Shown: in pieces, positions 38,131 to 49,802 of the stretch
Position numbering within the stretch: position 1 is the first letter of the stretch
Layout of the letters: every line of letters begins with the position of its first letter
The notes under the pieces: generated by a model
Database searches by the model: none
Seen by the model: the letters and a program-made list of their open reading frames with translations, nothing else
Told to the model about the DNA's origin: nothing
Translations under genes and position numbers: made by a program
Origin: an uncultured Fidelibacterota bacterium
GTDB lineage: Bacteria > Fidelibacterota > Marinisomatia > Marinisomatales > Marinisomataceae
Reading direction: 5' to 3'
DNA: 64,000 bases
NCBI GenBank assembly: GCA_902538565.1
Contig: CACBFQ010000002.1
Span: forward strand, 285,908 to 349,907

Positions 38131-38997
38131 TTAACTAGATAGAAATTCTTTGGCAAGTTGCTCCATCAAATCTCCACCCTTTTCATTCAGGTGAATATGA
38201 TCGCAAAGCAACTGTAGCTTATACTTTTCTCCAATCTTTGTCCAAGTCCAACCAAAAATATAGTGAAGTATAACAGCTCTTAGACCTCGCAACCTTCTAA
38301 GTTCAGAGGTAGTGTATGGAACGCTATTGTTGGAGCTTATTTGTTCTTTGAATTTTGAAAATAAATCAAGGATTGATAGATCATATTTTAAAGCAATCCT
38401 TTTAATTATTTTATTATGATTTTGAATGACACTTATGATTGATGCATCCTCTTGCTCACCAAGCCATGGAAGAGTTGTAATAGCAATTTTAGCAGAGGTT
38501 TTTGCTTTGATTTCCTTTACAAAAATTTCAATCTGCTCTTCAAACCAATCTATTGAAGGAACTTTTGGAAGATTTTTTGTTTGAATATAATAATCCTGAA
38601 TTAATTTTACAGGCTGGCTTCCTATTGCATCATTCGTACCAATTAAAATTGTAACATAGTCTGGATTATGCTTAATAATATCATTTAATCTTTGATTTAA
38701 GTTCCAAGTTAAATCAGCATTTATGCCTGCATTTATATAAATCTTAGAATCATCTGAACTTCTTAAAGAACTCACCCAGTCATATCCAATATGTCCATGT
38801 GTAATACTATCACCACAACATATAACTACAGGTTTATCATTATTAATCAAATTTACACTATGTGCATCCATATCAGGGAGCTGCCACGATTTTCGTATAA
38901 TTGGTAGTTTATAAATGTTTTGAATAATTGAATTTCTAAAAAGATATATAACTACAAGAAAAATGAAAAAAAATACAAGAAAGTAAAATATGTTCAC
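38131..38997 (-). CDS. Membrane-anchored SGNH/GDSL hydrolase
   Basis: GDSITHG (block I), GIN (II), IGTND (III), DHIH (V). Confidence 0.9.
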   Translation of the reverse strand: MNIFYFLVFFFIFLVVIYLFRNSIIQNIYKLPIIRKSWQLPDMDAHSVNLINNDKPVVICCGDSITHGHIGYDWVSSLRSSDDSKIYINAGINADLTWNLNQRLNDIIKHNPDYVTILIGTNDAIGSQPVKLIQDYYIQTKNLPKVPSIDWFEEQIEIFVKEIKAKTSAKIAITTLPWLGEQEDASIISVIQNHNKIIKRIALKYDLSILDLFSKFKEQISSNNSVPYTTSELRRLRGLRAVILHYIFGWTWTKIGEKYKLQLLCDHIHLNEKGGDLMEQLAKEFLSS

Positions 38998-39945
38998 TTA
39001 ATTGATTTCAGGCAGTTCAAATGCAACAACCCTAGCATCATTATCTACTGCATATAGAAACCATTTACCATGCATATATGCTGTAGTAATACCATCTGTG
39101 TAGGAAACATTATCTAAATACATAGTAGTCTTGTAATCTAATGTTTTACGATCATACAAGTGAAAACGATTGTCAGTTCTGCTTTGCTCAGTACAAATCC
39201 AATATCCATTATTATCTTTATTAATTACTAAAGCAATGCCTTCAGGATCATTTCCTCTACCAAAATTACCTAAATCTTCTTTTATAATTTCACCTGTCAT
39301 CAAATCTATTGCCATAACCTTATGGTGCTCTTTCATTTCTTCTGCTACTAACAAAGTTTGATAATATTTATCAGCTTGAATACTTTCTACTTGATAAAGT
39401 GTAGGGTTTCCTAGCACTGTAGCTGGCCCTACTGAAAATTCTTCATTTTCAATGGTGAAATCCCAACTTAGAATTCGATCTTCTCTTGGGTTATTAAATT
39501 CATAGCTATCCGTAACTAAAACTTTATAAGAGTTATTTTCCTGCTTATAAAATGTAATTCCATAGGGGCTACGCAACTCGTCTTTTCCAAAAGCACCTAA
39601 AAAGTCCATCGACGAATTAAATACAGCAACCTGCTTATTATCACGTTCTGTAACTAAAACAAACTGATCATTAATAGTGGTAATTCCATTTGGATAGGCA
39701 TTTTCTCGCTTAATAGATTTTTTAAACTTTCCATTCATAGCACCATATACATGCAGTTCATTTTTATCTTTTACTGTCACTACAATAACATGTTTTCTCA
39801 TTAAGAATCCAATACTGTCCATGCCTGCGTCAGCAACAGATTCTGTTACGAACATCGGGTTATTTAAGGTAATAACACTAGGTTTAGAATTACATCCAAT
39901 GATGAAAAACAAAGAACTGATAAGGTAGAATTTTAAAATCTTCAT
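38998..39945 (-). CDS. Beta-propeller phytase-like lipoprotein
   Basis: Lipobox IIG-C; QVESIQAD...LLVAEE, DPEGIAL, FHLYDR and TDG motifs align by eye with beta-propeller phytases. Confidence 0.7.
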   Translation of the reverse strand: MKILKFYLISSLFFIIGCNSKPSVITLNNPMFVTESVADAGMDSIGFLMRKHVIVVTVKDKNELHVYGAMNGKFKKSIKRENAYPNGITTINDQFVLVTERDNKQVAVFNSSMDFLGAFGKDELRSPYGITFYKQENNSYKVLVTDSYEFNNPREDRILSWDFTIENEEFSVGPATVLGNPTLYQVESIQADKYYQTLLVAEEMKEHHKVMAIDLMTGEIIKEDLGNFGRGNDPEGIALVINKDNNGYWICTEQSRTDNRFHLYDRKTLDYKTTMYLDNVSYTDGITTAYMHGKWFLYAVDNDARVVAFELPEIN

Positions 39946-39948
39946 ATA

Positions 39949-40704
39949 CTATTCTACTATACTAAGTAGTTCAATATCAAAGACTAAAGTGGAAGATGGT
40001 GGAATAATATATTCGCCTTTTTTTGCGTCTTTATAAACCCCTGCAATACCATAGCCTAAATTTTCAGGAATAAATACTTTCCATTTAGAACCAACTGGCA
40101 TTTTTTGTAAAATTTGTTGCCAACCTTGAATTACTCCATTAAGTGCAAAAGTTGCTGGCTCACCTCGATCATAACTACTATCAAATTTTGTACCATCAAT
40201 TAAATATCCGTTATAATGTACTACAACAGCGTCATCAAAGTCTGGAATCCTACCATTGCCCTCTTGCATAACTTTATATTGAATTTGACTTCTACTAAAC
40301 ACTCTTACGCCTTCATTGTATTTATTTTTTTCCAAAAACTCCTGACCAGCCATTTTATTTTCTCGAGACATTTTTTTGGACTTTTCACTAAGAGATTTCA
40401 TTAGCTCTCTTTCTATTTCAGAATTTTGAATATTGAATGCTCTTAATACTTCAAGTCTACTTGGTGCATTAATTCTTGGTTCAGTATTATCCCAAAAATC
40501 TTGTAATCCCTCAATAAGTAAATCATGATTAATTTCTGTTTCTGGAAGATTTTGACCGATATTTACTCCCATAGTATAACTCAATGAATCCTGAAAAGTT
40601 ACAATAGGCTCATTATCTACTTGTTTGGACGCATTACTTTCTGATGAGCAAGAAAATAATAAAAGACAAGAAATTGCTAGTTGAATTTTAAATATATTTT
40701 TCAT
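39949..40704 (-). CDS. FKBP-type peptidyl-prolyl isomerase (lipoprotein, FkpA/Mip-like)
   Basis: DSLSYTMG, VHYNGYLIDGTKFDSSYDRG, VIQGW, IPPSSTLVFDIELL. Confidence 0.95.
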   Translation of the reverse strand: MKNIFKIQLAISCLLLFSCSSESNASKQVDNEPIVTFQDSLSYTMGVNIGQNLPETEINHDLLIEGLQDFWDNTEPRINAPSRLEVLRAFNIQNSEIERELMKSLSEKSKKMSRENKMAGQEFLEKNKYNEGVRVFSRSQIQYKVMQEGNGRIPDFDDAVVVHYNGYLIDGTKFDSSYDRGEPATFALNGVIQGWQQILQKMPVGSKWKVFIPENLGYGIAGVYKDAKKGEYIIPPSSTLVFDIELLSIVE

Positions 40705-40746
40705 GCTTGTATTCTATTATCATTAAAAAAAAGAGTAAAGAAAAAA

Positions 40747-41580
40747 TTATCTTCCATCTTTATAGCCTTTATAATCATCCATCATATCATAAAGTCCATA
40801 AAGACTGCTAAACTTGATTAAAAGCGAGCTAGGAAGTAGTGCTCTAAGTAAAACTACTTGATTCATTATCCATGGAACTTTTGGCGAATGAAATCCAAGT
40901 TTAATGGCACGATTAACAATAACTTTTGCAACTGAATCATGACTCTTAACCCCTGGTGCTAATAACTGACCTAAAAAATTAAGCTTAGTTCCTTCAAATA
41001 ATCCTTTCTTCAAAAAGTTTGGATGAATGGAAGAAAATTTAACACCATACTTACCCATCTTTTTTACTTCAAGTCTTAAGGATTCAGTAAGTCCTGCTAC
41101 AGCCCATTTAGTAGCAGCGTATACAGCTAGCTTAGGAGCACCTGTCATTGATGATGCTGAGGAAATATTAATAATGTGACCAGAGTTTTTATCTAACATA
41201 GTTGGCATGAATGCACGAATGGTATATATCATTGATGTAAAGTTTACATTTATAAGATTTTCAAGCTCTTCATCACTTCTATCTAGCATATACCCAGTAT
41301 AAACAGTACCAGCGTTATTAATTAGGATATCTAAACTACCAAACTTTTCTTTAATGATATTTGCATTACTATATACTTGTTCTTTATTTGTAACATCACA
41401 TATTTGAGAGAAAACATCAAATCCTTGCTCTTTAAAATTATTAACAGTTTTGTTTAGATCATCTTCGTTGAAATCCCAAAGTATTACCTTTCCACCTTCA
41501 TTTAGAATCCTTTGTGCAGTAGCTAAACCTATACCTTTAGCTCCTCCCGTTATAAGAACAAGTTTATTTTTAAGATTCAC
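40747..41580 (-). CDS. SDR family oxidoreductase (retinol/17-beta-HSD-like; GTG start)
   Basis: TGGAKGIG, NNAG, YAATK. Confidence 0.9.
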   Translation of the reverse strand: MNLKNKLVLITGGAKGIGLATAQRILNEGGKVILWDFNEDDLNKTVNNFKEQGFDVFSQICDVTNKEQVYSNANIIKEKFGSLDILINNAGTVYTGYMLDRSDEELENLINVNFTSMIYTIRAFMPTMLDKNSGHIINISSASSMTGAPKLAVYAATKWAVAGLTESLRLEVKKMGKYGVKFSSIHPNFLKKGLFEGTKLNFLGQLLAPGVKSHDSVAKVIVNRAIKLGFHSPKVPWIMNQVVLLRALLPSSLLIKFSSLYGLYDMMDDYKGYKDGR

Positions 41581-41596: not shown

Positions 41597-42583
41597 TTAC
41601 AGATTAGAATACCATTGAATTCCATATGCCAAAGTTACACTTATTGCTAAGCCTAACATAAGTCTGAAAAAATCAGAATAAAGCATTGGAAATATACCTT
41701 TTTTGTGCTTGTCAGTGTATGTGAGAGTTCCATAACCTTGAGCAAACATAATACCAATTTCTCTCCCTGCTAACATGCCCATAAATACAAAAGTAGTACT
41801 CATAGGAAGGTCATTTACTTCTTTAAAATAGTAAAGTACAAACACATACACCAAATCAACTAATGTAGCAGAACGAACATATCTAGTGTTTGTTTTAGAT
41901 AATACTATTTCTTGAATTTTTCCTCCCCTTTCATAAAACATAAAAGCTAATCCAAGGAGCATTGTTCCTAAAATAAGTATTTGAAAAGATATAGTAGGAA
42001 CAGATGAATATCTTGGTAAGAATACCATAATATTTGCCATATCATGTGAAAGCCATGTTGACCATAACCAACCGGTAGTTACCCATTGTGCAATTCTCCA
42101 ATAAGTATTGTTCTTGTTATCACCCTTTTCACCTTCATATAAGATATATTTGCTAATTAAATACCATGCAGCAAATGCAAACACAAATGATACGCCATAT
42201 CCCACAAAACTTTTTAAAAGCATTTTTTCCATCAGACCATCCACGCTAGCGGCAAAGACAGATAAGACTAAAAAAGTGGTTGATACAGGGATTTTTAATC
42301 TAGTTAAAAGAACTAAAACAAGAGGTGCTAATGCGTGATACCACATTATTTCAATTTCGGGGAATTCGGTCAATCTACCAAAAGCAGGATCTCCCGCATT
42401 GAATCCTTGAATCATAGTGAAAACAAAGATTGATCCCATATAACCAAACATCCAGTACCATTTTACATCAGCTCTATTAGATGCAATGTATGTACCTAAA
42501 GTTTGAATACTATCATTCGCAGTAACAGCATATACAGCAAATAAAAACCCAAAAAAAGACCATAGTGTTAAAAAATCCATCAA
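41597..42583 (-). CDS. Divergent PiT/PHO4-like inorganic phosphate permease (putative)
   Basis: Two-repeat membrane protein with TANDSIQTLG / SHDMAN and IPVSTT / LPMSTT, resembling the PiT GANDxAN and PxSTT signatures; directly downstream of phoU. Confidence 0.65.
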   Translation of the reverse strand: MMDFLTLWSFFGFLFAVYAVTANDSIQTLGTYIASNRADVKWYWMFGYMGSIFVFTMIQGFNAGDPAFGRLTEFPEIEIMWYHALAPLVLVLLTRLKIPVSTTFLVLSVFAASVDGLMEKMLLKSFVGYGVSFVFAFAAWYLISKYILYEGEKGDNKNNTYWRIAQWVTTGWLWSTWLSHDMANIMVFLPRYSSVPTISFQILILGTMLLGLAFMFYERGGKIQEIVLSKTNTRYVRSATLVDLVYVFVLYYFKEVNDLPMSTTFVFMGMLAGREIGIMFAQGYGTLTYTDKHKKGIFPMLYSDFFRLMLGLAISVTLAYGIQWYSNL

Positions 42584-42598
42584 AAGTACCTCATAAAA

Positions 42599-43252
42599 TT
42601 AAATATTTTCATCATGTCTAACAATTTTACCATTGATTTGAAAAATTATGTCTTCGGCTATATTCGTTGTATGATCTGCAGCTCTTTCAACATATCTTGA
42701 AATATTCGTAAAAACAATAAATTGCCTTAAGAATTCAGAATTACTTTTGGTTTTTTCTTTAAAAAGTGTAAATATCTCTCTGTTGTTGTTATCGATGATA
42801 TCATCCATTTCAATAACTTCAAATGCTTTTGCTTCGTCAGATAAAATAAAGGCATTAATAACATCATTTAACATAGAAGTTAAAGTTTCAGCTGAATGTG
42901 CTAAAATTTTAGGTAATTCTAAATCTGGATGTTCAACCATAAACTGGGTATTTCTAGCTATATTGGTTGCATAATCTCCTATTCTTTCAAGCTCATTATT
43001 AATTTTTAAAGCAGCTAATAGATATCGCAAATCTGAATCAGTAGGATGAAAATTTTCAATAATTTCGTTGACTTCTTTTTCTATTTCTACTTCCATCCTA
43101 TTTATTTTAGAATCAACATTTATTACAATTTGAGATTTATCTAAATCTTTTTCTTCAATTGCACTAAACGCATCTTTAATATTCGTTTCAACTAACGAGC
43201 TTAGTTTTAATAAATTATAGTTTAAATCTTGTATTCTGTCAGACAAATTCAT
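42599..43252 (-). CDS. phoU: Phosphate signalling complex protein PhoU
   Basis: D..IN..E..IE, ELERIGDYATNIA, DDIID, YVERAADHTTNIAEDII. Confidence 0.95.
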   Translation of the reverse strand: MNLSDRIQDLNYNLLKLSSLVETNIKDAFSAIEEKDLDKSQIVINVDSKINRMEVEIEKEVNEIIENFHPTDSDLRYLLAALKINNELERIGDYATNIARNTQFMVEHPDLELPKILAHSAETLTSMLNDVINAFILSDEAKAFEVIEMDDIIDNNNREIFTLFKEKTKSNSEFLRQFIVFTNISRYVERAADHTTNIAEDIIFQINGKIVRHDENI

Positions 43253-43282
43253 TCTCCATAATATAGGAAAAGTACAAAAAAA

Positions 43283-43304
43283 TATTTAGGATTATGTTAG
43301 GATT
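43283..43304 (-). promoter_or_regulatory. Candidate Pho box upstream of phoU
   Basis: AATCCTAACAT-AATCCTAAATA (11-bp period), followed after 8 nt by TACTTT. Confidence 0.7.
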
Positions 43305-43309
43305 CAGAT

Positions 43310-43342
43310 AAAAAAAGAGGGAAGAAAACTCTTCCCTCTTTT
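43310..43342 (-). terminator. Rho-independent terminator after the beta-helix lipoprotein gene
   Basis: AAAAGAGGGAAGA-4nt loop-TCTTCCCTC then T7 on the minus strand. Confidence 0.88.
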
Positions 43343-43390
43343 AGAAGTAATATTCACAATAGGAGATGCTATATTACTTATTGAATTAAT

Positions 43391-44977
43391 TTAGTTACTT
43401 TCTTCTGACCATACTGTCCAGCCATCAAAAGCATCATCGTTGAAACCAGCTTTTAAAGCACCAACAAATGTTGCAGATGCATCCATACTAGCTTCAGTCG
43501 GAGTTGATCCTGTAAACTCGGTTGTTGGAAGTAAGCTTGCTTCTGTTACGCCAGTATTACCATCTTGTACATTAAATGTAAAGCTAGCACCTGGATCCGT
43601 TCCATCAGTAGCTGCAACTGTTGCAGGAGTTGGAACATCATCCATAACATTTAAAGGATCTAACCAGATGTATCGTCCATCAGCATCATTTGTAGGAGGA
43701 GTTGAACCATTTACAACAAATGTTCCATCTAAATTTCCATCTTCATTAGTAGCACGGAAACCTCTTCTTTGCTGATCTACCAACATATAATTTTGGAAGT
43801 GTCCAGCAGTTCCTTCTCTTAATCTTAAAGACTCATCTTCAGAAGATCCGCTGTTATTTCCTACAATTGTTACATTAGAAAATTTAGGAAATGAATCGTC
43901 TGCAGACTGGCTGCTGTTTCTTCCATCCATTTCATGTCCTCTATTTGAGGTTGAACCTCTAACTACAACTAGGAATTGTCCTGTTCCTTGGTATCCGGTG
44001 TCTGTATCAAATCCGTCGTCACCGACTTTATATACCATACAGTATCTTAAATCAACAGTTCCACCAAACATTTCAAAACCGTCATCAAAGTTATAAGCTA
44101 CTTCACAGTAACTAACTTCTGTTCCAGTTCCAACACCAGCTAATGTAATACCATTAATTTCATTATCTGGAGCAATTGCTCTACCACCATAACGAACTGA
44201 AACATATCTTAATGTACCAGAGTCATCAGCAGCATCTGTACCACCATAAGGTACTGAAGCAACACCCTCAACGGTTCTAGTTCCACCGCCTTGAATTGGT
44301 GCATAACCACAGACAATTAATCCACCCCATGCTCTACCACCAACAATTGGAAGTCTGTCTGGTTCGTCTCTTGCAATAACTGATGTCATGATAATTGGAG
44401 CATTAGCAGTACCTACTGCTTCAATCATTCCACCTTGCCATACTACGATTGCAGGAGCGTTTCCATTACCATCATCTGATAATGCATAAATGTTAGATCC
44501 AGCTGCAATTGTTAACGTTGCACCATCTCTAACTTGTAGTTGACCAGAAAGTACATAATCACCGCTTAAATCTAAATCTGAAGTAACATCTCCATATAAA
44601 CTTCTTTCAACATTCATATCCATTGAGTATGAATTTGATAAAGTTGTTGTACCATCTAAAGCGGTTGTAGTAACTGTTAACGTAACAGTTTTTGAACCTC
44701 TGGAAGAGAATGTATGTGAACCACTTGGAGCAACAGCAGTTGCTTCACCATTAAAATCCCATGAATATGCTACTCCAGCACCAGTACCGTTAGAAGCAGC
44801 CTGATCATCTGAAATAGAAAAATTATAGGTTAATGTTCCCATCACATGCTCAGCGTTAAATGGCTGTGCAGATGGAGGAAGAGTAGTATTATCAACAGTC
44901 TCTGTATCGTTGTCATCACATGATGTAAAAAGAAATACACTTGCGAAAATAGACAATATGATTTTTTTACTATTCAT
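43391..44977 (-). CDS. Surface lipoprotein: PKD-like domain plus acidic right-handed beta-helix domain (TBDT partner)
   Basis: Lipobox FTS-C; YSWDFNG; WGGLIVCG, GGTDAADDSGTLRYVSVRYGG, NEINGITLAGVG, DDGFEMFGGTV, DDGFDTD. Confidence 0.8.
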   Translation of the reverse strand: MNSKKIILSIFASVFLFTSCDDNDTETVDNTTLPPSAQPFNAEHVMGTLTYNFSISDDQAASNGTGAGVAYSWDFNGEATAVAPSGSHTFSSRGSKTVTLTVTTTALDGTTTLSNSYSMDMNVERSLYGDVTSDLDLSGDYVLSGQLQVRDGATLTIAAGSNIYALSDDGNGNAPAIVVWQGGMIEAVGTANAPIIMTSVIARDEPDRLPIVGGRAWGGLIVCGYAPIQGGGTRTVEGVASVPYGGTDAADDSGTLRYVSVRYGGRAIAPDNEINGITLAGVGTGTEVSYCEVAYNFDDGFEMFGGTVDLRYCMVYKVGDDGFDTDTGYQGTGQFLVVVRGSTSNRGHEMDGRNSSQSADDSFPKFSNVTIVGNNSGSSEDESLRLREGTAGHFQNYMLVDQQRRGFRATNEDGNLDGTFVVNGSTPPTNDADGRYIWLDPLNVMDDVPTPATVAATDGTDPGASFTFNVQDGNTGVTEASLLPTTEFTGSTPTEASMDASATFVGALKAGFNDDAFDGWTVWSEESN

Positions 44978-44989
44978 TTTCTTATCCTT

Positions 44990-45013
44990 TTTATACTATT
45001 ATTTATACTATTA
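44990..45013. repeat. Perfect 12-bp tandem direct repeat TTTATACTATTA x2
   Basis: Seen directly, immediately upstream of the lipoprotein RBS. Confidence 0.85.
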
Positions 45014-45063
45014 GTGTGTGGAAAAAACCCACCGACGCAAACTAGATTTACAAATTGAGTTTG

Positions 45064-45096
45064 CTATTTGAAATTTGTTAGGATTATGTTTGAATT
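45064..45096 (-). promoter_or_regulatory. Candidate Pho box (three units) upstream of the lipoprotein gene
   Basis: AATTCAAACAT-AATCCTAACAA-ATTTCAAATAG, 11-bp period, starting 1 nt after the TBDT stop. Confidence 0.7.
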
Positions 45097-45097
45097 T

Positions 45098-47953
45098 TTA
45101 ATTAAAATCGTAAGTCATACTTAAAGATATAGATATACCTGGTTCAAGTATCTTTGTATCTAACTTATTTCCAGTATCAGTTTTTAAATAGTGTTCAATC
45201 TTGCTATTTAAAAGATTTTTTGCCTTAACACTAACTGATAATCCATTTTCAAATTTTTTCTTTGAAGTAAAATTTAAAGAATGAAAAGGTGCTTCAAAAT
45301 AATGTCCTGTTACATCTCCTACTTTAATAATTCTTTCACTAAAACCATTATAAGAAAGTGAAATTTCGTATCCTGAACTAAGAATTGTATCCAAGGCAAG
45401 ATTCCCTAAAAATTCTGAATGACCCATTAATGGCCTATTGGCCTGATCTTCAATTGGAGTGACTGCAAATGGAGACACTACAAAATCATTTACATCTACA
45501 TCTGATGATGACAGTGTAGCGTTTGCAGTTAAAATTTGGGTAGCACTTGATGAGGGAAATAAATTTATCTTCTTCCTAATATCAAACTCTAATCCATAAA
45601 TCGCTGCAGATTTTGCATTATTATACATACTATATGATCTTTCTACATTTACTAATAATACCTCTTCAACAGGTTTTTGCATATCTTTAGCAAATAATGA
45701 AACTGACCATACTTCACCTCCGGAAGGATATACTTCGTATCTAAGATCAAAATTTGTGACTTCAGATTGTTCAAGTGTGGGGACTCCAATATATTGATCA
45801 TCGCCATAAAATGCTTGATATTCAAGTGGTGCATATTCTCTAAATTCTGCTCTTGCAACAGTTTGAGATAACGAAAATCGCACTTTTGAATTCTCTGAAG
45901 TGTCAAAAATAAAATTGATAGAAGGAAGTACATAATTTTCATCAATATCTACAAGTGTTGGCTCTTGTGTAGGGTTGTTGTAAGGGTTCACATACGTTTG
46001 ACCAGTTACGGTATTGTATGGCCTAAGGTCTAATGTATACATTTCATATCTCATACCACCAATAAAAGTAATAGGTATAGCAAAAGAATCAAATTTTCTT
46101 TCAATCATTGAGAAAATTGCATTTGTCTTTTCATCTGCATCGTATGCAGCTCGTGCAAGCTGTGCTGCCTCTTCAACAATGATTAAACCACTATTTCCAT
46201 CAAAAAAGTTTTCTTCATCAAACGATCTTCCAAAATCATTATTATTAACCTCCAGAAGATTGTTTGGCCATGTTCCATTAGAATGAGTATAATAAAAAAT
46301 TCTCTTTTTAAAAGTCCTATCTCTCTGCTGAATTCTAAGTCCACTCTTTAATTGAAAGTTTTCAAAATTAACTTTATACGACAAATCTAAACTATTATTT
46401 GTATCATCTCCATCAGCCCAAAATCTTAAGCCAGGCGACGTACTACTGACATCAACAGTATAAGGATTTAATGCGCTTTGCCTTGAGTAAGTATGAGAAG
46501 CAACATCTGGTTCGTACAATGAAGCAGAACCTAAATTTATTGACCAATCAAGTTCGCTTGGATTAGAAGAATAAAATATACTACTACCTTCCAAAGATAA
46601 ATTAGATAATGCTTTTTCACTATAATAATGCTGAATGGTTACTGCGTCTTCTAAATTTTTAAGTACCCCAGAAGCATAAGATAATTTATCACTTGCCTTG
46701 TGACTTAATAAAAAAGATAATTTAAACTTGTGATCTTGTAAATATTTTAAACCTGTGCTCATATTTAATACATGGTTGGCATTATAAATGGATGTTTCTC
46801 TTTGGAGGTTCAAATATCTTGATAGTTCTGTATTGTCATAATATCTACCAATATTTTCATCCTCAAAATCATAAGAGTTACCAAAAGAATAATTTATAAA
46901 GTATCCATACTCATAATCACCGTTTGAACTATTAAACTTTTGACCATTTTCAATACCAAATGAAATTTGAGGGCTGGTACTTTTTGAATTAGTACGATAA
47001 TTTTGTTTGAATTTATTTGTATTTGTCGATAATAATTCTCGCCATTGTGAAGAAGTATAGTTCTGTGGATTAGTTGAACCAGATGTTAATGGATATCTAA
47101 ACTCTGACAACCAAAAATCTTTTGGAACGTCAGGCATTTTATTATCATTTCCATCTATACCAAAAAAATTAATGCCATTATTAGATGTTCTAAATCTACT
47201 ATTATCAATTGATGAAATTGTTCCAGCGCCAAACTTTAGCTTCATTATTTTTTTGTCTGGATATGCTAAAGTTTTAATATTTACCACCCCTCCAGCAAAA
47301 GTTCCAGGTAAGTCAGGAGTGAACGTTTTTTTTGCACTTAATCCAGAAATAATTGAAATAGAAAAAAGATCTAGAGGAACAGCTCTTTTTTCGGGTTCTG
47401 GGGTAGCTAAGTCAGAATTATTTAATTGAGTATTTGTATACCTATCACCTAACCCTCTTACAGCAACAATGTTATCAACTACAGAAACACCAGTCACTCT
47501 TCTAAACGCATCTGCTGCATTAGAATCCCCCGCTTTTGACATTCTTTCTAAACTTATTGCATCTTCAACATTAGATGATTCTTTTCTGTCAATAATTATA
47601 CTTATATCGCTACCATCGACTGCTTGACCAGTCACCTCAACACCAGATAACTGTACGGCATCTATTGATAAAGCTATATCAAAATTATTTTGCCCCTCTA
47701 AAAGATTAATTGAAAATCTTTCGGATTTATAACCTATGTACGAAACATTTAGTACAACTTCGCCTGGTTGAGTAAAAATCGTGAAGGAACCATTTAAATC
47801 AGAAGCTGCTCCATTATTTGAGTCTTCAATAATAATATTTACGCCGACTAGGGCTTCTCCAGAATCCTTATCAGTGACAGTACCAGTTAGAACAGATAAA
47901 TCTTGACAAAAAATGAAACTTAATGATAAAAATACTACTTTAAATATTCTCAA
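45098..47953 (-). CDS. TonB-dependent receptor with N-terminal carboxypeptidase-regulatory-like extension (TTG start)
   Basis: GTVTDKDSGEALVG, LSGVEV, plug RVTGVSV...VRGLGDRY, NFDLRYE, C-terminal ISLSMTYDF; SD AGGAG 8 nt upstream. Confidence 0.92.
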   Translation of the reverse strand: MRIFKVVFLSLSFIFCQDLSVLTGTVTDKDSGEALVGVNIIIEDSNNGAASDLNGSFTIFTQPGEVVLNVSYIGYKSERFSINLLEGQNNFDIALSIDAVQLSGVEVTGQAVDGSDISIIIDRKESSNVEDAISLERMSKAGDSNAADAFRRVTGVSVVDNIVAVRGLGDRYTNTQLNNSDLATPEPEKRAVPLDLFSISIISGLSAKKTFTPDLPGTFAGGVVNIKTLAYPDKKIMKLKFGAGTISSIDNSRFRTSNNGINFFGIDGNDNKMPDVPKDFWLSEFRYPLTSGSTNPQNYTSSQWRELLSTNTNKFKQNYRTNSKSTSPQISFGIENGQKFNSSNGDYEYGYFINYSFGNSYDFEDENIGRYYDNTELSRYLNLQRETSIYNANHVLNMSTGLKYLQDHKFKLSFLLSHKASDKLSYASGVLKNLEDAVTIQHYYSEKALSNLSLEGSSIFYSSNPSELDWSINLGSASLYEPDVASHTYSRQSALNPYTVDVSSTSPGLRFWADGDDTNNSLDLSYKVNFENFQLKSGLRIQQRDRTFKKRIFYYTHSNGTWPNNLLEVNNNDFGRSFDEENFFDGNSGLIIVEEAAQLARAAYDADEKTNAIFSMIERKFDSFAIPITFIGGMRYEMYTLDLRPYNTVTGQTYVNPYNNPTQEPTLVDIDENYVLPSINFIFDTSENSKVRFSLSQTVARAEFREYAPLEYQAFYGDDQYIGVPTLEQSEVTNFDLRYEVYPSGGEVWSVSLFAKDMQKPVEEVLLVNVERSYSMYNNAKSAAIYGLEFDIRKKINLFPSSSATQILTANATLSSSDVDVNDFVVSPFAVTPIEDQANRPLMGHSEFLGNLALDTILSSGYEISLSYNGFSERIIKVGDVTGHYFEAPFHSLNFTSKKKFENGLSVSVKAKNLLNSKIEHYLKTDTGNKLDTKILEPGISISLSMTYDFN

Positions 47954-47995
47954 CTCTACATCTCCTTTAAAAGTTAAGAAAAATGTAAAAAGCTT

Positions 47996-48017
47996 ATGTT
48001 AGGATCATGTTTGAATA
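47996..48017 (-). promoter_or_regulatory. Candidate Pho box upstream of the TBDT, overlapping the phoR 3' end
   Basis: TATTCAAACAT-GATCCTAACAT, 11-bp period, followed after 8 nt by TACATT. Confidence 0.72.
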
Positions 48018-49045
48018 GGTAGAAATATTTTTACAGAAGTTCCTTTGCCTATCTCACTATCTATTATAATATCTCCATTGTGCAGATCCAAAATTTTTTT
48101 TACAATTGATAATCCTAAACCTGATCCTCCATACTCTCTACTTCTTGAGGATTCTTCTCTAAAAAATCTAATAAATATATCCTTAATATTTTCTTTTTTT
48201 ATTCCTTTTCCATTATCAATTATTTTAATAATGCATGAATCTTGCTGGCTGGATAGCAGAATATTAATCTTGCTATTTGAATTTGAATACATAATTGCAT
48301 TTTTTAAAATATTGGATAATGCATTTTGAATAAGGCTTATATCAACCTTTAAATTGCAACAATTAAAATCTTTCGGCTGTTCAATATCTATATTTTTTTT
48401 ATCTGCAAGGTGTTTCACAGTTTCGACAGAAGATAAAATTAAATCACTTAAACTAATCTCTTCTTTTTGAAGATTAAAAACAGCATTGTTTTCTAACATA
48501 GATATCTGCAGCAAATCATCAATTATTTCATTCATTCTCAAAGATTGTCTAATAATGATGTCTCTAAAAGGAATTTCTGTAGGAATTGTTTCAGTAGCAG
48601 CTAAAATAGAAGTGATTGGCGTTCTAAGTTCATGAGATACATTTTCAACAAACTCTCTTTGAGAATTCTGTGCTTGTATGATAGATGATATATCATTAAA
48701 AACAATTAAATATTTCGACTTAACGGATGTTTCCACTTTCAAAAAAGTTACTTTTGCATCAAATGATTGAGAAGCATCAATAAAAAAGTCTTCTTCAAAA
48801 GTTGTAATTTCGTTTTGATTTTCAATAGCTTTCATTGATTGCTCAATGAAGTTTAATATTTTGGGGTTTCTAACAATACCTGATATCGGTTTCCCAATGA
48901 ATTCTTCAGATAAAGAAAATATTCTTTTTGCTTTATCATTATAAAAAATTAAAAATTTATCATTATTTATAGAAATAACACCCGATTGTATAGTATCAAG
49001 AACTGACTTTAAATCATTAATCGGAGTATTACTCATCTTCATCAT
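48005..49045 (-). CDS. phoR: Sensor histidine kinase, PhoR-like (PAS-HisKA-HATPase, no TM segments)
   Basis: FVENVSHELRTPITSI, NILKNAIMYS, DNGKGI, GGSGLGLSIVK; paired with an OmpR-family regulator and near phoU. Confidence 0.8.
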   Translation of the reverse strand: MMKMSNTPINDLKSVLDTIQSGVISINNDKFLIFYNDKAKRIFSLSEEFIGKPISGIVRNPKILNFIEQSMKAIENQNEITTFEEDFFIDASQSFDAKVTFLKVETSVKSKYLIVFNDISSIIQAQNSQREFVENVSHELRTPITSILAATETIPTEIPFRDIIIRQSLRMNEIIDDLLQISMLENNAVFNLQKEEISLSDLILSSVETVKHLADKKNIDIEQPKDFNCCNLKVDISLIQNALSNILKNAIMYSNSNSKINILLSSQQDSCIIKIIDNGKGIKKENIKDIFIRFFREESSRSREYGGSGLGLSIVKKILDLHNGDIIIDSEIGKGTSVKIFLPIQT

Positions 49046-49724
49046 TAAACTTATATCCTATACCCCTAATAGTTTTAATATATTTTTTTTCAGTAGATAA
49101 TTTTTTTCTCAATCCTACAATTTGAAAATCAATTGTTCTATCTGTAGCAGGATAATTATCTCCTCTAATAGAGTCAATTATTTGAGATCTAGTATACACC
49201 AAACCAGGATTTTGAGCAAGCATACTTAAAATTTCAAACTCACTAAATGTTAAATCTATTATAGCATTATTTACACTGACTTGATGTTTGCCAATATCTA
49301 TTTTTAAGCTATCAAATTTCAAAATTTTTGAATCTGTTTTTTTAACTCTTCTCAGAACAGCAGCAATTCTAGCAGAAAGAATTGAGCCAGAAAATGGTTT
49401 AACTATGTAATCATCTGCTCCCAATTCCAAACCTTTTACAATATCAACTTCGCTTCCTTTAGCTGTAAGCATTATTATCAGAAGATCTTTTAATTTGGGG
49501 TCACTTTTGATAATTCTACAAATATCGTATCCACTAATACCTGGAAGCATTAAATCTAAAAGAAGCAAATTGGACTTATTATTTCTAAGGTGTTTTAGAC
49601 CAGATTCGCCATTTGAAAATGATTGTACTTGATATCCTAAGCTTGAAATATTATAAGCAAGTAGCTCGCGAATATCTTTATCATCTTCAATAATTACTAA
49701 TTTTATATTTTTTGTATCTGACAT
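49029..49724 (-). CDS. phoB: OmpR/PhoB family response regulator
   Basis: IEDD, LLDLMLPG, MLTAK, GADDYIVKPF, winged-helix RTID...IKTIRGIGY. True start is ATG 49724. Confidence 0.85.
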   Translation of the reverse strand: MSDTKNIKLVIIEDDKDIRELLAYNISSLGYQVQSFSNGESGLKHLRNNKSNLLLLDLMLPGISGYDICRIIKSDPKLKDLLIIMLTAKGSEVDIVKGLELGADDYIVKPFSGSILSARIAAVLRRVKKTDSKILKFDSLKIDIGKHQVSVNNAIIDLTFSEFEILSMLAQNPGLVYTRSQIIDSIRGDNYPATDRTIDFQIVGLRKKLSTEKKYIKTIRGIGYKFNDEDE

Positions 49725-49729
49725 AGATG

Positions 49730-49802
49730 CTCCGGAGGAGGGACTCGAACCCCCGACCTGGTGATTAACAGTCACTCGCTCTACCAACTGAGCTACTCCG
49801 GA
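49730..49802 (-). tRNA. tRNA-Asn(GTT), CCA not encoded
   Basis: Acceptor TCCGGAG/CTCCGGA, anticodon loop CTGTTAA, GGTTCGA T-loop. Confidence 0.96.

Follow-up and report, generated by a model that had tools for sequence, protein, structure and literature searches.

Putative Pho boxes with an 11-bp period in a phosphate-gene cluster of SAR406/Marinimicrobia

A 64-kb stretch of DNA from an uncultured marine bacterium of the SAR406/Marinimicrobia lineage (~32% G+C; hereafter the window, meaning the whole stretch that was analysed) carries three sites, S1, S2 and S3, that are very probably Pho boxes, i.e. operators for the phosphorylated form of the PhoB-like response regulator encoded just upstream. 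In the direction of minus-strand transcription, the region comprises genes for a Na+/solute symporter, tRNA-Asn, PhoB and PhoR, then S1, a TonB-dependent receptor gene, S2, a lipoprotein gene, a terminator, S3, phoU and a gene for a PiT-like protein (Table 1). The three site sequences reported in a preliminary description of this DNA were all recovered at the given minus-strand coordinates, and the proposal made there that they are tandem 11-bp operators of the PhoB/OmpR type is supported by gene context, by two matrix transfer tests between the window and distant relatives, by a recurrent 8-nt spacing to a promoter element and by a motif-only scan of metagenomes. All three sites are intergenic, in a window with ~6% intergenic space, and all lie on the strand of the downstream genes inside one 5-kb gene cluster. 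Only the first unit of S1 reaches into coding DNA, namely the final codons of phoR with its stop; S2 follows the stop codon of the receptor gene and precedes the lipoprotein gene. As expected for Pho boxes, a predicted cognate PhoB/PhoR two-component system is encoded beside them.

Each site consists of at least two direct repeats with an 11-bp period, in which a conserved core, (T/C)CTAACA(T/A), is combined with a variable A/T-rich part. The family consensus of the 11-bp unit is WWTYCTAACAW, and in the window clade one unit of the pair is often TTCAAACAT. Exact matches to the dimer pattern WATYCWAACAWNATYCWAA number three in the window, and 300 dinucleotide-shuffled versions of it produced none; this comparison is circular, since the pattern was drawn up afterwards from these very sites. 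The same circularity applies to a scan with a matrix made from the window's own units, in which S1–S3 score at least 21.7 bits and the next dimer 12.4 bits.

Independent evidence comes from distant Marinimicrobia. A PhoU search of genome contigs returned only four close relatives (L001–L004) and two unrelated Firmicutes loci; because these relatives are too close for deep footprinting, wider sampling was done via lipoprotein and PstS homologues. This yielded five independent loci, one with a lipoprotein homologue of 48% identity (L127) and four with PstS homologues (L132–L135; 29–43% G+C), which were scanned on both strands with a forward matrix built from the window's seven units only. In four of the five, the top matches stand just ahead of phoB, the pst operon and the receptor orthologue. 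In L127 (gene order phoB, phoR, receptor, Beta_helix_4 lipoprotein, pstS, porin, pstCAB, phoU), pstS is preceded by four tandem in-phase units (AAGCCTAACTA TATTCTAACTC AATCCTAACAA AAATCTAACAT; up to 23.7 bits), the receptor gene by a dimer of 17.7 bits (TTTTCAAACAT AAATCTAACAA) and phoB by a weak dimer of 12.9 bits; neither strand of this locus holds a further match of at least 10 bits. In L133, L134 and L135, the best matches are directly 5' of phoB and of the first pst-operon gene, the receptor gene of L133 has a weaker box upstream, and there is a single off-target match of at least 14 bits. In-phase arrays of two to four units occur in L127, L133, L134 and L135. As a negative control, loci with a paralogous receptor-lipoprotein pair lacking Pho genes were used (L130/L131), and no matrix match was found in front of the pair in L130. 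The sole high-scoring dimer away from Pho genes (L133, 18812–18833, minus strand) has a ribonucleotide reductase operon on one side and citrate synthase on the other; it may be a chance match or mark an additional regulon member.

The reverse test is non-circular. A matrix of 22 units from L127, L133, L134 and L135, run over both strands of the window, recovered S2, S3 and S1 as its top four dimers (23.7, 18.9, 18.2 and 17.7 bits), with the next dimer at 13.3 bits. In 100 simulated windows, the maximum score averaged 13.2 bits (standard deviation 2.4; highest 19.8).

The sites also stand at a fixed distance from a promoter element. As previously reported, S1 and S3 are each followed, after exactly 8 nt, by a hexamer, TACATT (47987–47982) and TACTTT (43274–43269) respectively. 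Described before as -10-like, these hexamers are better read as the first six bases of TAnnTTT(G), the -7 box of Bacteroidota-type sigma-A promoters (PMC9723704). The flavobacterial form of this box, TAnnTTTG, occupies positions -12 to -5, counted from the transcription start (PMC9723704). It is matched at seven of eight positions by TACATTTT at S1 and TACTTTTC at S3, the reference being a flavobacterial consensus that may not be that of Marinimicrobia. Full TAnnTTTG boxes are present at L134 phoB (TAATTTTG) and at the L135 pst operon (TAAGTTTG). Among independent promoters, TAnnTT occurs exactly 8 nt past the promoter-proximal unit in 6 of 11 (background 0.0098 per position), and S1, S3 and units 3–4 of S2 share this spacing. 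A sigma-70 consensus does not explain promoters in this region, since a scan of 38–50 kb gave 57 promoter-like sites versus 62 in shuffles.

These features are consistent with a conventional mode of regulation. A PhoB dimer would bind two adjacent head-to-tail 11-bp units on one face of the helix. Since the proximal unit of S1 and S3 ends 8 nt 5' of the -7 box, the box would cover roughly -42 to -21, in place of the -33/-35 element; this corresponds to the arrangement expected of a Pho box, which stands in lieu of a -35 element at a fixed distance from a -10-type element, and transcription is predicted to start near 47975 (S1) and 43262 (S3). When phosphate is limiting, recruitment of RNA polymerase by PhoB~P would be expected, as at Escherichia coli Pho promoters, with the TonB-dependent receptor gene as the target of S1, the gene for the Beta_helix_4 surface lipoprotein as that of S2 and the phoU/PiT-like operon as that of S3. 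The in-phase array at S2 lies one box further from a weaker candidate -7 box, TAGTTTGC, with which it would form an internal promoter. We infer from sequence that PhoB binds these sites, that the outcome is activation rather than repression and that S2 functions as a promoter. The regulatory mechanism is standard PhoB biology, for which the box is a useful but unsurprising signal.

Conservation among close relatives agrees with a function for the boxes. Within the genome collection, the window is closest to single-cell genomes and metagenome-assembled genomes (MAGs) of Marinimicrobia/SAR406, with 85–97% PhoU identity, and all three sites are present in the four same-clade genomes. Comparing the window with these four, invariant columns number 21/22 within the S3 box versus 48/94 in the other intergenic columns, 23/33 versus 39/87 at S2, and 18/22 versus 28/42 at S1. 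The S1 core is kept in L001–L004. The 20-nt core of S3 is unchanged in all five genomes, and the flanking terminator and spacer have diverged in L004.

Outside Marinimicrobia, metagenomes were scanned with the DNA-only pattern CTAACA-N4-Y-CTAACA-N9-TAnnTTT, which none of the three window sites fits. At least 120 loci matched, and the matches listed comprise 84 distinct contexts, a sample rather than a census to which all the following counts refer. Most contexts (72/84) lie outside any open frame of at least 120 aa, and a third in-phase unit, C-T-A-A-Y-A, emerges 11 bp upstream although unconstrained by the pattern. A recognisable phosphorus gene follows within 400 nt on the same strand in 41–43 of the 84, so that the motif matches are heavily enriched for such genes. 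The downstream products are PstS (10/84), porin-like beta-barrels (8/84), PhoB (6/84), a Na/Pi cotransporter (5/84), the homologous TonB receptor (4/84), an AP-superfamily phosphodiesterase (4/84), PstC fusions (2/84), and PhoU, a Beta_helix_4 lipoprotein, a PAP2 acid phosphatase and a metallophosphoesterase (1/84 each). Names of the matched clusters include Desulfobacterales, Pedobacter quisquiliarum (Bacteroidota), Victivallaceae/Lentisphaerota and marine TMED MAGs. The order box, receptor and Beta_helix_4 lipoprotein recurs in contigs with soil/rhizosphere-type sample identifiers that are Bacteroidota-like by promoter type. Pho boxes typically stand upstream of phosphate-acquisition genes and usually also of phoB; the motif likewise precedes such genes in the window, its relatives and the metagenomes, with phoB of the window clade as an exception. 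In the viral collection, an 18-nt degenerate pattern without the -7 box gave >120 matches, most of them apparently due to chance, and was set aside as not informative; with the -7 box, the pattern was specific enough, giving six matches, none beside a recognisable phosphorus gene.

Several observations weigh against the identification of S1–S3 as Pho boxes. In the window clade, no Pho box lies 5' of phoB or of the preceding tRNA-Asn, and no pstSCAB operon occurs within the 64-kb window, so that the two classic marker promoters are uncheckable in the window genome. Since phoB of L127, L133, L134 and L135 is preceded by a box, autoregulation of phoB seems to have been lost or rewired in the window clade. 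The phoB product scores best with the NCBIfam PhoB model TIGR02154 (219 bits) and a Bacteroides-type PhoB model, and falls under the equivalog cut-offs of both, so it is taken as an orthologue by its best-hit rank and by gene context. The L132 locus has CTAATA cores that score weakly with the window matrix; box-like cores occur there in four of five in-phase frames upstream of pstS (one CTTAACA, three CTAATA). The metagenome scan does not test the spacing, because the promoter element was built into its pattern. S2 is partly degenerate in L004, has no counterpart in L127 or L133, and its two best units lack the spacing of S1 and S3, being one box (22 bp) further upstream.

The points that concern S2 bear on an alternative in which S1 and S3 are true boxes and S2 alone is no promoter operator, being instead a residual copy of S1 or acting inside a receptor-lipoprotein co-transcript. 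The core of S2 is nearly identical to that of S1 (ATTCAAACAT[A/G]ATCCTAACA), its best units have no -7 box at +8, and it decays in L004 as noted; in L127, the receptor and lipoprotein genes are just 15 nt apart with no box between. Against this, S2 is the top-scoring site with the independent reverse matrix, and its four units are in phase with a TAnnTT lying 8 nt past the fourth, where CTAnTTT is conserved in 5/5 clade sequences. Pedobacter quisquiliarum (L147) moreover has a full box with TAnnTTT directly 5' of a Beta_helix_4 gene and 3' of a receptor gene, like S2. We regard this alternative as unlikely, if deserving of consideration, and prefer to count S2 among the boxes.

A different objection is that the sites serve another OmpR-type winged-helix regulator that controls the same genes, rather than the adjacent PhoB. 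The 11-bp direct-repeat geometry is common to many OmpR-family regulators, and the adjacent protein scores almost as high with further models of the family as with the PhoB models, whose cut-offs it misses. However, the motif follows phosphorus genes across phyla (pstS, phoU, phosphatases, phoB), the PhoB-like regulator is the sole one linked to boxes in every locus, and apparently autoregulatory boxes precede its gene in L127, L133, L134 and L135 and in six metagenome contexts among the matches listed, which together make control by another regulator quite improbable. It is hardly credible that the sites are AT-rich repeats arisen by chance, or promoter/UP-element sequence of a generic kind that serves no specific regulator. 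In favour of this reading, the genome has 32% G+C, the window shows no excess of the single 8-mer TCCTAACA (4 copies versus 2.6 expected) and the degenerate 18-nt motif is frequent in viral contigs, but the dimer is absent from the shuffles, the three sites exceed nearly all simulated-window maxima, the box is selectively conserved among close relatives, and both transfer tests and the ~50% rate of phosphorus genes downstream of metagenome matches (among the matches listed) contradict it.

Taking S1–S3 as Pho boxes, they have close parallels among the known boxes with a TAAC core. The PhoP box of Bacillus subtilis consists of TT[A/T/C]ACA repeats at ~11-bp spacing, and at some promoters PhoP needs at least four repeats, including sites within coding regions. 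CTAACA and TTAACA are one position apart and both occur as direct repeats with helical periodicity; unlike in B. subtilis, no sites internal to coding regions were seen here. Judged by its core, the box belongs to the TTAACA/CTTAAC (TAAC) class of Pho boxes, its likeness to the TTAACA type having been pointed out in the preliminary description. The cyanobacterial SphR/PhoB box, CTTAACCT, was defined computationally, through footprinting of the pst, sphX and phoA promoters, and comprises 8 bp plus a 3-bp linker in at least three repeats (PMC1906773). It shares with the present box the 11-bp period, the YTAAC core, the frequent arrays of at least three units and the computational definition, and differs at positions 2 and 7 of the 8-mer (TCTAACAT here), in host phylum and in promoter type.

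More generally, a Pho box is a pair of 11-nt direct repeats to which PhoB binds head-to-tail; its consensus differs by taxon, that of E. coli being CTGTCAT and that of Streptomyces GTTCACC (PMC4415409). The present boxes resemble those of E. coli in having at least two 11-bp direct repeats with conserved and A/T-rich parts (PMC4415409), and in replacing the upstream promoter element at a fixed distance, where the E. coli box lies 10 bp upstream of the -10 box (PMC1906773) and the present one 8 nt from the -7 box. Likewise, strong promoters hold several boxes, as does the L127 pstS promoter with its four units. They differ in core (CTAACA/CAAACA versus CTGTCA) and promoter element (TAnnTTT(G) versus TATAAT), and in that the sites here are predicted from sequence.

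The nearest known gene neighbourhood is the 'PhoBR operon' of Flavobacterium johnsoniae (Fjoh_0542–0546), which includes a TonB-dependent transporter (Fjoh_0545) and a pectin-lyase-fold lipoprotein, FII (Fjoh_0546), both strongly induced by depletion of inorganic phosphate (Pi); no PhoB binding site is defined for this operon (PMC8115612). Both neighbourhoods combine phoR and phoB with genes for a TonB-dependent transporter and a lipoprotein of the beta-helix (pectin-lyase-fold) type, the window receptor being the counterpart of Fjoh_0545 and the window lipoprotein resembling FII. The induction of this pair is an experimental parallel that lends indirect support to phosphate-dependent control in the window. 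The SAR406 clade differs in adding a downstream phoU and PiT-like gene and in having a tRNA directly before phoB. A full-text literature search, with most subscription journals outside its coverage, found no description of a Pho box in Marinimicrobia or Bacteroidota.

The earlier suggestion that the motif could define the Pho regulon of this lineage holds as to its association with phosphorus genes and fails as to lineage: CTAACA-type boxes stand at phosphorus genes of several other phyla (Bacteroidota, Desulfobacterales, Lentisphaerota), and the motif is therefore not lineage-specific. The FCB group (Marinimicrobia and Bacteroidota) may well share one Pho-regulon promoter architecture, in which at least two CTAACA units at an 11-bp period are followed by an 8-nt spacer and TAnnTTT(G), the box itself also extending to Desulfobacterota and Lentisphaerota; the searchable literature yielded no account of such an architecture. 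If it holds, the Pho regulons of uncultured marine and soil lineages would be readable from sequence, and the TonB receptor/Beta_helix_4 pair and a family of unannotated ~410-aa beta-barrels would count as core PhoB targets. Bacteria of the SAR406/Marinimicrobia lineage are abundant in the ocean and uncultured, and so far their response to phosphorus scarcity can be studied from sequence alone. A validated Pho-box model with fixed spacing would allow their Pho regulon to be listed from MAGs and metatranscriptomes from phosphorus-limited waters to be read, and would flag unannotated outer-membrane proteins, such as the receptor/beta-helix lipoprotein pair and porin-like barrels, as candidates for phosphorus acquisition. 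This model also seems applicable to soil Bacteroidota, for which the Pi-starvation proteome is known and the operator undefined.

Table 1. Sites and genes of the cluster, in order of minus-strand transcription (positions in the window).
Feature	Position	Strand	Description and basis
tRNA-Asn (GTT)	49729..49802	-	ARAGORN and sequence; ends 4 nt 5' of phoB start codon
phoB	49029..49724	-	OmpR-family response regulator; Pfam Response_reg and Trans_reg_C
phoR-like gene	48005..49045	-	PAS histidine kinase; Pfam PAS, HisKA, HATPase_c
S1	47996..48017	-	Two 11-bp units, TATTCAAACAT GATCCTAACAT; putative promoter of TonB-dependent receptor gene
-7 box of S1	47980..47987	-	TACATTTT; predicted TAnnTTT(G)-type -7 promoter box 8 nt 3' of S1; sequence and geometry test
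TonB-dependent receptor gene	45098..47953	-	951 aa; Pfam, NCBIfam TIGR01782; N-terminal CarboxypepD_reg and Plug domains
S2	45053..45096	-	Three good units, AATTCAAACAT AATCCTAACAA ATTTCAAATAG (45096–45064), and a weak in-phase fourth (45063–45053)
Candidate -7 box of S2	45037..45044	-	TAGTTTGC; 8 nt 3' of weak fourth unit
Lipoprotein gene	43391..44977	-	528 aa; PKD domain, C-terminal Beta_helix_4 (PF28492)
Intrinsic terminator	43313..43342	-	13-pair stem, then T run; closes upstream transcription unit just 5' of S3
S3	43283..43304	-	Two units, AATCCTAACAT AATCCTAAATA; putative phoU promoter
-7 box of S3	43267..43274	-	TACTTTTC; predicted -7 promoter box 8 nt 3' of S3; sequence and geometry test
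phoU	42599..43252	-	Pfam PhoU; NCBIfam TIGR02135, 166.7 bits (cut-off 130)
PiT/PHO4-like gene	41597..42583	-	Putative phosphate transporter; starts 15 nt 3' of phoU

Further details of the cluster concern its genes. The best match of the phoB product among solved structures (PDB) is RegX3, of the phosphate-sensing SenX3-RegX3 system, and the top NCBIfam models for the phoR-like kinase are PnpS and PhoR, both under cut-off. The adjacency of tRNA-Asn and phoB is kept in L001–L004, and the 252-aa open reading frame with a TTG start listed for phoB opens with translated tRNA-Asn. The assignment of the PiT/PHO4-like transporter is tentative, this weakly PHO4-like membrane protein giving only a weak PHO4 match (E = 7.5e-4, under cut-off). 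The phoU and PiT-like genes are followed on the same strand, with short gaps, by genes for an SDR protein, an FKBP isomerase, a 315-aa lipoprotein and a GDSL hydrolase (38131–41580); no convincing terminator was predicted in this region, the sole same-strand candidate being inside the PiT-like gene, and these genes may be part of the S3 transcription unit. The 315-aa lipoprotein (38998–39945) was considered as a beta-propeller phytase and rejected, as Pfam gave a marginal NHL match only. Between S2 and the lipoprotein start codon there is a small hairpin, GGTGGG-TTTTTT-CCACAC (45016–45033, minus strand), whose sequence varies among L001–L004 with its pairing potential retained, and which could be a structure of the 5'-untranslated region or an intercistronic one.

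Other observations arose from the wider scans. Long tandem runs of CTAACATTTTT (at least four units) occur in AT-rich viral (L136, L141) and metagenome (L217, L250) contigs, with no recognisable phosphorus gene downstream of these four runs. Pairs of receptor and Beta_helix_4 (PF28492) lipoprotein genes stand behind boxes in L127, L133, L147, L149, L199, L213 and L230, a set that spans SAR406, Bacteroidota-like metagenome contigs and Pedobacter. In eight marine contigs (L143, L162, L163, L171, L229, L239, L245 and L246), beta-barrel-like proteins of 403–416 aa are encoded directly behind a box and are candidates for phosphate-regulated porins; the one tested, from L143, had no Pfam match, and one member of the ~410-aa cluster is named from a TMED MAG. 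A further marine contig, L186, has boxes on opposite strands, at 789 (minus) and 1528 (plus), for divergent phoB and Na/Pi cotransporter genes.

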